Of a stretch of 64,000 nucleotides of DNA, positions 4,138 to 49,159 are shown piece after piece. Every line of letters begins with the position of its first letter. Within the stretch, counting starts at the first letter, position 1. The position numbers and the translations under genes are program-made. Location of the stretch: the IMG/VR virus record IMGVR_UViG_3300036770_001342, positions 42,894 to 106,893 of that record; one strand, written 5' to 3'. Under the pieces are notes generated by a model that had not been told where the DNA came from, did not search any database, and was given only the letters and a program-made list of their open reading frames with translations. This stretch comes from a virus.

Positions 4138-4145
4138 TATTTATC
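4138..4145 (-). promoter_or_regulatory. Late promoter (GATAAATA)
   Basis: Overlaps the stop of the upstream gene and lies just upstream of the 4110 start. Confidence 0.6.
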
Positions 4146-37063: not shown

Positions 37064-37092
37064 TTGACATTCATCGTCGGGCGTTGTATCAT
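37064..37092 (+). promoter_or_regulatory. Sigma70-type promoter TTGACA-N17-TATCAT for the late sigma gene
   Basis: Perfect -35, 17-nt spacer, 5/6 -10. Followed by GAGG RBS and ATG at 37120. Confidence 0.8.
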
Positions 37093-37119
37093 TTTTACAA
37101 CACAATTATAAGAGGAAAC

Positions 37120-38016
37120 ATGTCTACAGCAAAAAAACCAGTAAACTATCTAAACAATAAGGATATCTTAAAAGAGATACATGCAAGCAAAACCAGTTTT
37201 TGCAGTTTTTCAAGACAAGAGTATCATCAGTACGATCTAATCATAGATACTCCACAAAACACATTAGAAAAAAGCCTAGCATTAATTTCAAAGCCTAAAA
37301 ATATTAAGGCTGCTAGAGAAGCAAGAGCAGCAAGAATTCTAGTTCAGACCGGACAAGAAGTAAAACTAAAGGACATTCCAGTAACCGATCTAGTCTTTCG
37401 TGTCATGACTTGGGATCATATTCCAGTTAGCCCAAAACAACCACGTAAGGTTGTCAAGAAAAAGACTGCTAAAGACATATTAGAATTTGATGACATAGAT
37501 GACGAAAATCTATTTGAAGATTTAGAGATTGAAGAGACCAAAGATGATGTAGATGACATGGTTCATGTCAAGGTCAACTTCCCTCCTTTTCAACACTATA
37601 AGTTAGACGAAAACAATTCAGCCGTGTGTGTTGGCAAGAGTCATTGGAAAGGTGGTGTCAAGACTGGTGAGTTCAGTAAAGATCATGGTAAGATCACTGA
37701 TAAGTTAGCACGTATGTTTATCATGCTTTGCGAAAAGTATGCCATGAAATTCAACTGGCGCGGTTATACTTACAATGATGAAATGCGTAACAGTGCCATT
37801 CTTCAATTGACATATGTTGGACTGCGTTTCAACGAGGCTAAATCAGCAAATCCATTCGCATACTACACAGCCGCTATCACAAATAGTTTCTGTCGTGTAT
37901 TGAATACCGAAAAGCGTAATCAAAACATTCGTGATGATATTTTAGAAATGAATGGATTGAACCCAAGTTATACACGCCAAATGCGTGATCAGAAGTTTAA
38001 CGTTTACGAAGAATAA
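37120..38016 (+). CDS. gp55: Late-transcription sigma factor, T4 gp55-like
   Basis: NYLNNKD...; L..M...L...YA.K.NWRGYTYNDEM...AI.....FN..KS.NPFAYYT....NSF.R....EK..Q.I matches gp55. Upstream of gp47/46 as in T4. Start moved to 37120 on RBS and promoter evidence. Confidence 0.8.
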   Translation: MSTAKKPVNYLNNKDILKEIHASKTSFCSFSRQEYHQYDLIIDTPQNTLEKSLALISKPKNIKAAREARAARILVQTGQEVKLKDIPVTDLVFRVMTWDHIPVSPKQPRKVVKKKTAKDILEFDDIDDENLFEDLEIEETKDDVDDMVHVKVNFPPFQHYKLDENNSAVCVGKSHWKGGVKTGEFSKDHGKITDKLARMFIMLCEKYAMKFNWRGYTYNDEMRNSAILQLTYVGLRFNEAKSANPFAYYTAAITNSFCRVLNTEKRNQNIRDDILEMNGLNPSYTRQMRDQKFNVYEE

Positions 38017-40874: not shown

Positions 40875-41441
40875 ATGCCTAGTCCACAAAAACAAAAAGG
40901 TTCGAGTTGGGAGCGTGAGGTAGCACGATACCTCAGTGAAATTTATCAAGAAAGTTTTATACGTGCTCCAGGAAGTGGAGCATATGTAGGCGGTAAAAAT
41001 AAAGTGCGTACTCAAATTTTACATGAAGGGCAGATACGCAGTTTTAAGGGAGACATTGTTCCAGGACAAAATTTTCCAAAATTTAACGCAGAGTGTAAAA
41101 GTTATGCTGATTTTCCTTTTCATTTAGTACTTACAGGACATTGTAAAGTATTAGATGGATGGTTAGATCAAATGATGGATGTTAGCGAACCGGGTGATTT
41201 AAATATTCTTTTCATGAAATTTAATCGCAAGGGTAGTTTCGTCTGTGTGCAAACTAACTTAACATGGATCACAGATCAATTTTTATATTATACAAGTGAA
41301 AAACACAAAGATTGGCTCATTATTGAGTTCGAACATTTTTTCAAACTCAACAAAGAATTACTTAAAACATATTGTTCAGGCTCATCAGACATAAAGTCTA
41401 ACTCCCCACAATTTAATACTTTAATTAATACAAACAATTAG
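40875..41441 (+). CDS. Holliday junction resolvase (PD-(D/E)xK, Hjc-like)
   Basis: KQKGSSWEREVA...RAPGSGA...GDI...AECK motif order. Confidence 0.7.
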   Translation: MPSPQKQKGSSWEREVARYLSEIYQESFIRAPGSGAYVGGKNKVRTQILHEGQIRSFKGDIVPGQNFPKFNAECKSYADFPFHLVLTGHCKVLDGWLDQMMDVSEPGDLNILFMKFNRKGSFVCVQTNLTWITDQFLYYTSEKHKDWLIIEFEHFFKLNKELLKTYCSGSSDIKSNSPQFNTLINTNN

Positions 41442-41444
41442 TTT

Positions 41445-41854
41445 GATAGGGGCAGCCCTATCCTCCTTGAGCAAGTCTAGTACACTAGTCACCTGCGGAT
41501 CTGGAGTAAAGATATACATTTGTATATCGTATACCGAGTGGGCAATCGACAGGTTTGCGAACCCACAATGAGTACATATCTTATTTCGTTTTGCGGATAT
41601 GTAACATGCGTTATAGTAGATGATGAGTCTACAACTACAGTCCATAAACTTTACAGTATAACCGGTAGCGTATAACATCACAACAGGGTAGTTATACGGG
41701 AACAAACGACATGGGTGAAGGGCAGGCAAGTCCAACCTTTGGTAGTGCTGAGATAGCACTACCATGGATTCAAAGCGGCAAGTAATCTAAATCCATATAA
41801 AAATTTAAATGACTGAGTGAGCGAAGCGAACGAAGTGTTGTCCGAAAGGACAAC
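41445..41854 (+). ncRNA. Unidentified large structured non-coding element (candidate ncRNA and/or replication origin)
   Basis: About 410 nt without a credible ORF in a gene-dense genome, visibly more GC-rich than its flanks, with about ten stems readable by eye. Strand tentative (GAAA loop on +). Confidence 0.6.
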
Positions 41855-41855
41855 G

Positions 41856-42086
41856 TTAAAAATAAGGAAGATTAGTTTTCTTTACCGTTTCCATGTGATC
41901 TTCAATTATTTCATTAATATATTTTCTTTCGGCATTGGACATATTTAAAATGTCTTGGTAACTTGCTCCACCACGAAGATGCCATGCCATGGATAATGCT
42001 GATTTTTTAATTCCCCCGATTTCTGCTTCCATATTTTTAACTAACTTCTCAACCTCATCGGGGGTTGCGTTTAGAAGTCTTAGCCG
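41856..42086 (-). CDS. gp51-like / tail assembly chaperone C-terminal ORF (own ATG at 42032, or reached by -1 frameshift)
   Basis: Manual translation: RLRLLNATPDEVEKLVKN-MEAEIGGIKKSALSMAWHLRGGASYQDILNMSNAERKYINEIIEDHMETVKKTNLPYF*. The S..DI.NM...ER helix pattern is typical of gp51/gpT-type chaperone parts. Confidence 0.7.
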   Translation of the reverse strand, partial: RLRLLNATPDEVEKLVKNMEAEIGGIKKSALSMAWHLRGGASYQDILNMSNAERKYINEIIEDHMETVKKTNLPYF

Positions 42087-42904
42087 AAAAAATCGCTAGC
42101 GTTTAGTGTAAATGGTTGTTTATATTGATGTGAGCAAGCAGCACATTGTATATCCAAAGGTTGAAGTTCTGTGCTAGCCTTTAATCTTGTGTTATAATCT
42201 CTTATAGTTTCATACATATTGGCATCACAGTTGCGTAGAAAATCTAGGATGTAGTCTTTTTGATCTACTGCTCCGTTTGGAGTTTCTACATACTCAATTG
42301 ATTTAGCAATTAATTGCATTGTTATGTCAGTAATACTTTTAATTGCTACTTGTGTAGCAGCAATTTTTTGCTTTTCATCTTCAATCTTTTCAATTTCAGC
42401 AAAACTTCTTTGAATATCAAATTGACCCAATGCTGCTTCATTCATTTCAGCATAGGTCATAGGTTTAAACTTAATTGATAGGTTATTAACATCTAGTTTT
42501 TGATCATAATTGCCCATTTTTAATGTTTGTAATACATTAACTAGATTGACACCGTATGTGTTAGTTTCTTTACATGAAGGACAACTTGTAGTGACATCTA
42601 AAGTGTTGTCGCCACCGGCTGCTCTTATACCAATCAGAACTGCGTCTAAGTCACTTGTAGTTAATCTCCATGGATCTTTAATATTAGGCAAACAACTTTT
42701 AATGACTTCTGCTACAGCGTTACCGTTAAACAATGCGTCTGGTGTTCTTAACGTAATTTCATCGATTGCTGTCATAGGATAAACCGGCAGTTCGCCGTTT
42801 TCAGGCATCGACAATACGTCAGGTGCATATCCCTTACCTTTGCTAGGCAATGTAATAAACACAGCGGGTCTACGAAAGTATTGTTTTAGCGGATTATTGT
42901 CCAT
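42080..42904 (-). CDS. gp26: Baseplate hub assembly / tail chaperone, T4 gp26-like
   Basis: ITLPSKG...V.PMTA.DE..L...DLDAVLIGIRAA...CPSC...CAAC...DFFG*. Divergent from the tape measure gene. Confidence 0.75.
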   Translation of the reverse strand: MDNNPLKQYFRRPAVFITLPSKGKGYAPDVLSMPENGELPVYPMTAIDEITLRTPDALFNGNAVAEVIKSCLPNIKDPWRLTTSDLDAVLIGIRAAGGDNTLDVTTSCPSCKETNTYGVNLVNVLQTLKMGNYDQKLDVNNLSIKFKPMTYAEMNEAALGQFDIQRSFAEIEKIEDEKQKIAATQVAIKSITDITMQLIAKSIEYVETPNGAVDQKDYILDFLRNCDANMYETIRDYNTRLKASTELQPLDIQCAACSHQYKQPFTLNASDFFG

Positions 42905-42922: not shown

Positions 42923-42989
42923 TTTGGTATTTTTACCAATTATAAATAATATAAGTCGAGATATTTATAATTAGGTAAAATACCCGAAA
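42923..42989. promoter_or_regulatory. Face-to-face TATAAATA late promoter pair inside an imperfect inverted repeat
   Basis: TATAAATA on + at 42941-42948 and on - at 42962-42969. Arms tttggtatttttaccaattataaata and tatttataattaggtaaaatacccgaaa. Confidence 0.7.
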
Positions 42990-48819: not shown

Positions 48820-48822
48820 ATA
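48816..48822 (+). promoter_or_regulatory. Late promoter (ATAAATA), 5 nt before the 48828 ATG
   Basis: ATAAATA-ATATT-ATG. Confidence 0.55.
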
Positions 48823-48827
48823 ATATT

Positions 48828-49052
48828 ATGAAACTATTGGAAATGTTCAATCCACCTGTTCCTGGATTTCAAGATGTTAATACAGACAATAGTAAACCAA
48901 CTTGGCGCACAAGCCGCAAAACTAAACTGACTTTAAAGCAATTAAGAAAGTTAAGAAAGATGTTGGATGTTCGTAATTATGAAAAGAAAGAATATCTAAA
49001 AAAAGTCAAAGAGCAGTATAGTCAAGCAAATAACGCTCAACCATCAGCCTAA
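48828..49052 (+). CDS. Small basic head-module protein (74 aa)
   Basis: Between the portal and core genes. RKTKLTLKQLRKLRKM. Confidence 0.7.
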   Translation: MKLLEMFNPPVPGFQDVNTDNSKPTWRTSRKTKLTLKQLRKLRKMLDVRNYEKKEYLKKVKEQYSQANNAQPSA

Positions 49053-49116
49053 TTTTGTAAAAAACACCAAAAACGTAAAAAAATCGCACTTATTGAACAG
49101 TTTTTAGTGATACTCA

Positions 49117-49123
49117 CTAAATA
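49117..49123 (+). promoter_or_regulatory. Late promoter (CTAAATA) with upstream A-tracts
   Basis: Precedes AGGAG RBS and ATG at 49160. Several A5-7 tracts at 49059-49083. Confidence 0.6.
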
Positions 49124-49159
49124 ATTCTACAAAGCCATTTACATCCAGGAGAATCAAAA

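Follow-up and report, generated by a model that had tools for sequence, protein, structure and literature searches.

Directly behind a large structured RNA, the + strand of an uncultured T4-like jumbo phage carries two small abutting hairpins, H1 and H2. From the comparison of related phages we judge this twin hairpin to be real and under selection on the + strand, since base pairing, compensatory changes and a fixed Y-GA-R context were found across the relatives. We tentatively favour the reading that both hairpins are the strand-specific single-stranded DNA (ssDNA) signal of a transcript-primed origin, at which the strands would be opened, an R-loop would form and synthesis would be primed. 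The alternative that H1 and H2 constitute the 3' tail of the large non-coding RNA and are co-transcribed with its core is nearly as likely.

The window, i.e. the whole stretch of DNA analysed here, makes up the right-hand 64 kb of a viral contig of 106.9 kb with 36% G+C and a CheckV completeness of about 31%. The closest counterparts of its portal protein are found in PA5oct, Atu_ph07 and Phosso. Related loci were collected from IMG/VR, 80 via the RusA-like protein and at least 120 more via an invariant word of the upstream element. The alignments used comprise 45 distinct relatives (hand-checked), 88 distinct sequences (model-aligned) and, for the loops, 128 unique tails; a covariance model of the twin hairpin was built from 45 distinct sequences.

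The twin hairpin and its conservation

The hairpins are situated behind a block of genes which are all on the + strand and which, according to PHROG matches, encode a gp55-like late sigma factor (37084-38016), the SbcD/SbcC-like proteins gp47 and gp46 and a RusA-like Holliday-junction resolvase (40875-41441). The gp55-like gene forms the upstream end of this gp55-gp47-gp46-RusA block, and a sigma-70-like promoter (37064-37092, + strand; 11 of 12 matches in a consensus scan) lies ahead of it. The RusA-like gene is the last of the block, and its stop is located 3 nt 5' of the structured non-coding RNA core (41445-41782, + strand, about 340 nt). An A-rich A/T linker (41783-41811, + strand), with ATATAAAAATTTAAAT at 41795-41810 just 5' of H1, connects the core with the hairpins. 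H1 (41812-41836, + strand) reads ACT-GA-GT-GA-GC-GAA-GC-GA-AC-GA-AGT and consists of an ACT/AGT helix, a tandem G.A, GT/AC, a second tandem G.A and GC/GC closing a GAA loop, so that its apex is GCGAAGC. H2 (41837-41854, + strand) follows with no spacer and reads GTTGTCC-GAAA-GGACAAC, a perfect 7-bp stem with a GAAA loop and a C-G closing pair. On the minus strand a 58-aa ORF and a baseplate-hub-like gene (41856-42904; ORF and PHROG evidence, synteny) run convergently towards the hairpins, and the minus-strand stop codon is 1 nt from H2. The RusA-like gene and the convergent minus-strand genes are separated by an ORF-poor gap of 415 nt (41442-41855); the second-largest gene-free gap of the window (48820-49159, 341 nt) is found after the portal gene.

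Two observations concern the 3' part of the RusA-like gene. The conserved word AGACACCA(A/C)GTCAA (41345-41360, + strand) is located near its end, 60-75 nt 5' of the RNA core, and probably codes for D-T-K/T-S. The C-terminal tail of the RusA-like protein is variable, yet the A-rich word AAAAATTNG directly before RNA helix 1 is kept.

The twin hairpin is present in all of the at least ~190 related IMG/VR jumbo-phage loci examined. A strict scanner recovered it in 66 of the 120 added loci, the remainder being visible variants with inserted helices, and the covariance model found exactly one significant match in each locus, in every case on the strand that carries the upstream element. In the 45 hand-checked relatives 93.9% of the cells pair and both sides have changed at 14 of the 16 pairs, a level of covariation that was reached by none of 500 shuffles; slid controls paired at 28-41%. 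The 88 model-aligned sequences yielded 93.7% paired cells and compensatory change at 15 of the 16 pairs, and here the six inner stem pairs of H2 are paired throughout (100%), with many double changes.

The tandem G.A pairs are always embedded in the context 5'-Y-GA-R-3' (columns 7/20 and 10/17 of the 45-sequence alignment). Their number is one, two or three per relative, and sometimes a helix of 6-8 bp is inserted between them. The L007 lineage has GA-AC-GA...GA-GT-GA where the window has GA-GT-GA...GA-AC-GA, and the G.A steps are retained.

Counts of the motif speak for a unique element. The word Y-GA-R-C-G-N-A-G-Y-GA-R occurs once in the window and not at all in 100 shuffles. The core word with a loop centre of 1-2 nt is found once in the 107-kb contig (0.18 in shuffles) and once in the complete 352-kb relative G001 (0.59 in shuffles), at homologous sites, and the covariance model likewise has a single significant match in each of the two sequences. 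The gene order RusA (+), RNA (+), hairpins, hub genes (-) was found in 102 of 104 distinct loci. Strand-specific conserved hairpins in one copy per genome and on the + strand only are the pattern of a single-strand initiation signal.

The element had been pointed out in an earlier note on the window sequence, and its description proved accurate: the parse of H1 and its immediate neighbour GTTGTCC-GAAA-GGACAAC match the window exactly, the order of structured RNA, AT patch and hairpins is kept in every relative, and the recombination genes gp47-gp46-RusA do adjoin on the + strand. The conservation check proposed there, with G.A steps kept and Watson-Crick steps compensated, was passed, for example by the swap of GT/AC and AC/GT in L007. 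Neither of the two objections raised there that can be checked by computation holds: the compensatory changes speak against a lack of conservation, and a REP-like dispersed repeat is ruled out by the single copy in 107 kb and in 352 kb.

The RNA core, the linker and transcription of the hairpins

Judged from the alignment, the RNA core is a genuine structured RNA. Compensatory changes were found at 42 of its 71 predicted pairs, and its variable cells contain 90 G.U as against 10 A.C combinations; this excess of G.U shows that the + strand is the functional RNA strand. The core was found in at least 120 IMG/VR contigs with sizes up to 524 kb and contains many invariant unpaired stretches, e.g. 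CCTCCTTGAG and ACCGGTAGCG, as well as a 10-bp hairpin followed by CCATGG. The whole gap between the RusA-like gene and the minus-strand genes is conserved in the sampled loci. Across the relatives neither the core nor the whole gap contains a conserved ORF in any frame, and a coding reading of the gap was therefore dropped.

The window has no Rfam match at the gathering score and no relevant match at E≤10, and eight relatives gave none at E≤1. This includes RF01718 (Polynucleobacter-1), which was found neither in the window (E≤10) nor in the eight relatives (E≤1). Neither tRNA nor tmRNA genes were found in the window. A hammerhead reading of CUGAGUGA...GAA was rejected, as the spacing is wrong by one base too many and the word is absent from most relatives. 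Like GOLLD, ROOL and Polynucleobacter-1, the core is a large, covarying, phage-borne RNA from lake metagenomes; to our knowledge a hairpin tail of the H1/H2 kind is absent from the descriptions of these three RNAs.

The linker varies between 21 and 65 nt in the relatives, and its sequence is not conserved. It is composed of 80% A+T, with 52% A and 28% T on the + strand; the last 10 nt 5' of H1 contain on average 6.2 A, and both flanks of the hairpin pair are A-rich on this strand.

The word (G/T)ATAAATA recurs 20-60 nt 5' of structural genes, on the + strand at 42941, 46987, 53458 and 61819 and on the minus strand at 4138, 5107, 28623, 29112, 37024 and 42962. It is a T4-type late-promoter consensus and fits the encoded gp55-like sigma factor. 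The exact late-promoter word GATAAATA is absent from the linker; a late promoter in the A/T patch was rejected, as only the near match TATAAAAA to GATAAATA is present there and is not conserved. Type-A relatives carry a conserved module 10-20 nt 3' of H2 (L060:2215-2250 and homologous places), ACCCG...GATAAATGAA...CGGGT, which the window's lineage lacks. On its + strand this module includes a sequence close to the late-promoter word, and its 3' arm might form pairs with the word ACCGTAA further upstream.

Since the hairpins are on the same strand as the RNA, directly behind it and with no terminator between, they are very probably co-transcribed with the core. The promoter at 37064-37092 is a candidate source of + strand transcripts that would reach the hairpins; no terminator-like site is listed on the + strand between this promoter and position 41854. 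The terminator scan listed no canonical terminator on either strand of the window. Behind H2 the + strand has 2.7 T in 10 nt, and as there is no U tract 3' of H2, this hairpin is not an intrinsic terminator. With no match in the scan either, an intrinsic terminator on the + strand is ruled out.

Transcription of the hairpins is the starting point for the alternative that they are the tail of the RNA. Two stacked RNA hairpins could define the mature 3' end and protect it against 3'-5' exonucleases, or they could be a handle for a protein, with the tandem sheared G.A pairs and the GNA loops as recognition surface. This is the default reading for covarying hairpins which adjoin an RNA gene. It is supported by the position of the tail, which shares the strand of the core and without exception follows it at a distance of 21-65 nt, in at least ~190 loci and with unchanged synteny, and by the uninterrupted path from the core into the tail. 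The A-rich flanks are typical of single-stranded RNA linkers, and the same bias (52% A vs 28% T) counts against an ssDNA signal, as an unwinding element needs no such asymmetry. An ssDNA signal is further weakened by the probable presence of the hairpins as RNA, on which selection could act. The missing U tract, and with it the missing terminator, speaks against an RNA tail and in favour of the ssDNA signal. The hairpins resemble 3' stabiliser and terminator hairpins such as the C(UUCG)G hairpins of T4 in being stable hairpins on the transcribed strand at the 3' side of a transcript. They differ from these in the absence of a U tract, in having GNA/GNNA instead of UNCG loops and in the tandem G.A pairs, which weaken an RNA stem.

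We also considered termination on the opposite strand. Read on the minus strand, H2 and H1 precede a U-rich stretch, the complement of the A tract, and might in this orientation terminate or insulate the late genes that converge on the hairpins, which we regard as quite improbable. The 6.2 A in the 10 nt before H1 would be U in a minus-strand transcript, a single nucleotide (1 nt) separates the stop of the minus-strand ORF from H2, and a 7-bp stem is retained by the H1 complement of type-A relatives. In the window, however, this complement is unfolded (0 kcal/mol) and H2 is 25 nt away from the U-rich tract; the scan lists no terminator on this strand; and a terminator on one strand is no reason to conserve Y-GA-R mismatches and the G...A loop ends on the other.

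Loops, base pairs and folding energies

The ssDNA signal and the RNA tail make different demands on the loops. DNA mini-hairpins have the consensus GCGNAGC / GCGNNAGC (PMC13037366). In the published melting experiments, which tested isolated 7-8-mers only, GCGAAGC, GCGATAGC, GCGACAGC and GCGTTAGC melted at 69.5-76.5°C as DNA, and r(GCGAAAGC) at 39°C (PMC13037366). For each of the loops GATA, GACA, GTTA, GAAA, GTAA and GCAA a DNA melting temperature of about 70-76°C has been published (PMC13037366), and these loops are the commonest 4-nt loop variants in the phages studied here. Natural mini-hairpins are known from the G4 origin (GCGAAAGC), from St-1 and alpha3 (GCGTTAGC), from ssiA of RSF1010 (CCGAAGG) and from the N4 promoters; all of them are start sites on ssDNA (PMC13037366), and these precedents count for an ssDNA signal.

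The 256 loops of the 128 unique tails are GNA in 193 and GNNA in 40 cases (233 together), and 238 are closed by a 5'-C...G-3' pair. The H2 loop is GNA in 104 of the 128 tails, and the apex of H1 reads GCGATAGC, GCGACAGC, GCGTAGC and others in the relatives. Both loops and their variants fit C-G-N(1-2)-A-G, in agreement with Hirao's loop and closing pair, and the DNA-type hairpin seen at GCGAAGC in the earlier note thus obeys the published consensus (PMC13037366). The second apex pair is G-C in the window and in 42 of the 88 sequences and A-T in 40 of the 88; the second pair of H2 varies. Only 8 of the 40 GNNA loops are GNRA, whereas 32 have a pyrimidine at position 3 (GATA, GACA, GTTA and others), so that the 4-nt loops are mostly GNYA. 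This agrees with a DNA mini-hairpin and is unfavourable for an RNA tail.

Elsewhere these phages use other loops. Among 52 other gene-end hairpins C(UUCG)G was found five times, C(UACG)G three times and C(GNA)G never; as far as can be judged from these loops, RNA hairpins of the phages are capped by loops of the RNA type. This favours the ssDNA signal over the RNA tail, and the RNA tail is also disfavoured by the hairpin loops of the core itself, none of which has the form C-GNA-G in the alignment. Outside the window, at G000:C1:14976-15001, an 11-bp hairpin has the sequence C(UUCG)G when read along the minus (coding) strand; it is capped in the classic RNA manner, unlike the GNA loops of the twin hairpin.

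The pairs were compared as well. G.U makes up 90 of the 1705 variable cells of the RNA core (5.3%), compared with 1 of 675 (0.15%) in the twin-hairpin tail of the 45 sequences or 11 of 1371 (0.8%) in that of the 88. Half of the tail's pairs are A-T. G.U pairs are thus about six times rarer in the tail than in the core, although the depletion is milder with 88 sequences, and we regard this as suggestive of a tail selected as DNA; the G.U pairs in the tail are rarer, not absent, which limits the argument.

Other features of the hairpins fit RNA equally well. The tandem G.A pair is well known as a classic motif of RNA, and its sheared form in a Y-GA-R context is equally typical of RNA and DNA. 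GAA and GCA are among the commoner triloops of natural RNAs, and tandem sheared G.A pairs are common there too (PMC4615370). These points support the RNA tail and weaken the case for an ssDNA signal.

Folding energies were calculated for both chemistries. As RNA, H1 alone is marginal (-4.0 kcal/mol, z -1.4), which counts against the RNA tail and for the ssDNA signal. Together, H1 and H2 fold at -16.5 kcal/mol (z -4.2) in the RNA model, and both are predicted in most relatives, in support of an RNA tail. With the standard DNA parameters of ViennaRNA H1 does not fold (0 kcal/mol); DNA folding energies are uninformative here, since this parameter set contains no terms for sheared G.A pairs and mini-hairpins. 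Within these models, energies alone do not single out H1.

A G.A pair on the + strand corresponds to T.C on the other strand, so that only the + strand folds, an asymmetry which we count in favour of the ssDNA signal. The claim that the hairpin folds on the + strand only was borne out in the window, where the complement of H1 is unfolded. The argument from the TC/TC mismatches of the complement fixes the strand; it does not fix whether the hairpin acts as DNA or as RNA.

A promoter of the N4 type, read on a single-stranded template by a virion RNA polymerase, was considered as a further DNA reading. H2, with a stem of 7-8 bp and a 3-nt GNA loop, is like the N4 early promoters (PMC13037366). 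On the other hand, PF00940 (T7/N4-type polymerase) was not found, even as a first-pass candidate, in four complete relatives or in the contig, where a silent control leaves the absence unproven; each genome here has one copy and N4 has several; and transcription would run antisense into the RNA gene. We therefore consider such a promoter very unlikely.

A possible transcript-primed origin

If the hairpins are an ssDNA signal, the following course of events would be conceivable. Early transcripts of gp55-gp47-gp46-RusA-RNA would run into the A/T tract, and unwinding at the end of the RNA gene upstream, or behind it, would free the + (non-template) strand. The displaced + strand would fold up into neighbouring mini-hairpins, H1 and H2, that could stack coaxially, both with a C-G(N)NA-G cap and H1 with the added stiffness of its tandem sheared G.A pairs. 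These hairpins would be far more stable as DNA than as RNA and would trap the displaced strand and hold the A/T tract open. Because the duplex could not close again over the hairpin-trapped + strand, the transcript would stay on the template as an R-loop and would prime rightward synthesis. The hairpin pair, to which SSB would bind poorly, would mark the start for helicase loading or for priming of the leftward strand. Through the G.A/T.C asymmetry the duplex would also avoid being a true palindrome close to the genes of a palindrome-cutting nuclease.

The proximity of these genes allows another interpretation. SbcCD-type nucleases cut DNA hairpins. The twin hairpin could be a programmed hairpin substrate for the SbcCD-like gp46/gp47 nuclease or for the RusA-like resolvase, i.e. 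a recombination hot spot which creates an end for recombination-dependent replication. The strict linkage to the gp47-gp46-RusA genes and the DNA type of the hairpins are in line with this, but the linkage may be plain synteny and the G.A/T.C asymmetry hinders cruciform extrusion. We regard such a substrate as improbable.

The putative transcript-primed origin can be compared with known systems. The apex of H1 follows the same consensus as the origins of G4, St-1 and alpha3 and ssiA of RSF1010, with C-G closure, a G...A frame and any middle base, and the CCGAAGG of ssiA is also present in H2 of many relatives. There as here, only one strand folds. The ssi-type sites are found in ssDNA phages and plasmid origins, where they are read by DnaG or RepB', whereas the candidate signal described here belongs to a dsDNA jumbo phage. 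H1 differs from them by the addition of one to three tandem G.A steps and, in about 40% of the relatives, by an A-T second apex pair.

The ColE1 origin region consists of RNA II, the origin and a primosome assembly site; the T7 primary origin has promoters, an AT-rich region and primase sites; and oriF and oriG of T4 are composed of a promoter and an unwinding element. The same order, a probably transcribed structured RNA, a variable A/T-rich tract and a structure on the strand that would be displaced, is found here, likewise at the end of an early-type operon. The differences are that the tract is A-biased, that the RNA core is far more conserved and intricate than the origin transcripts of T4 and T7, and that RNase HI was not found in four complete relatives. 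The more specific proposal of a transcript-primed three-part origin in giant T4-like lake phages, made up of structured RNA, A/T tract and a twin DNA mini-hairpin that would lock the displaced strand open and mark the second-strand start, is doubtful.

The position of the element was assessed with the help of G001, the complete relative, whose assembly has a 194-bp terminal overlap. Its genes are arranged in two divergent arms of about 263 kb and about 88 kb, which meet at a hinge of about 7 kb. The hinge contains the gp55-to-RusA block, the RNA with the hairpins and the hub gene; the element is its largest non-coding stretch and has its sole copy in G001 there. In G001 the cumulative GC skew is lowest at 19.5 kb and peaks near 283 kb, and the element is at 13.2 kb; in the contig of the window the minimum lies at 79-80 kb and the element at 84.7 kb. 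The minimum falls within the region of divergent promoters that precedes the gp55-like gene, and in both sequences the skew follows gene orientation, which is why the element is near, not at, the inflection. A single copy in a 352-kb genome, placed in the 7-kb hinge and 6 kb from the skew minimum, argues for an origin signal. Against it, the site is convergent, not divergent, for transcription, and the skew minimum is 5-6 kb off and is explained by gene orientation. The GC-skew inflection proposed as a check lies at this distance from the element and is attributable to gene direction. The position is compatible with an origin in the hinge but is not a demonstration of one.

Proteins which could read the signal were searched for in four complete relatives. 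A DnaB/gp41-like helicase is encoded by all four (in G001 at 132.9 kb) and was the only such candidate reader found. PF01807 and PF13662 (DnaG-type zinc ribbon, Toprim_4) had no match there and RNase HI was not found, the controls being positive in each case. PF16793 and PF08993 (RepB' primase, gp59 N-domain) gave no match in the same four genomes with silent controls, so that their absence is unproven. That no such primase, RNase HI or gp59-type loader was detected counts against an ssDNA signal.

No published description of the twin hairpin was found in the literature and no catalogued RNA family matches it; a literature search for phage RNA motifs with tandem G.A pairs and GNA loops found nothing relevant. 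Hardly anything is known about where jumbo phages start replication, and no function has been assigned to the large, ornate RNAs of phages; the element links both questions. It is small, sharply defined and single-copy, and its sequence rules allow a role as DNA to be told apart from one as RNA. As an ssDNA signal it would extend the ssi-type mini-hairpin origin signals to a dsDNA jumbo phage for the first time, and the orphan large RNA would gain a function as primer or regulator. As an RNA tail, it would add a new 3' module, characterised by tandem G.A pairs and GNA loops, to an RNA family that is widespread and uncatalogued.

In the cultured relatives PA5oct, SCTP-2 and Phosso the gene order differs, and no significant match to the twin-hairpin model was obtained. 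Four ncRNAs of PA5oct are known from RNA-seq, all of them elsewhere in that genome (PMC7318152). The Sinorhizobium phage Phosso has an unannotated gap of about 1 kb between its RNase HI and RusA-like resolvase genes (L223:1487-2500). The association of a large RNA with the resolvase gene may be an old one. Within the Phosso gap, a 9-bp hairpin with a C-GAA-G loop is located at 1805-1825 on the strand of the resolvase gene.
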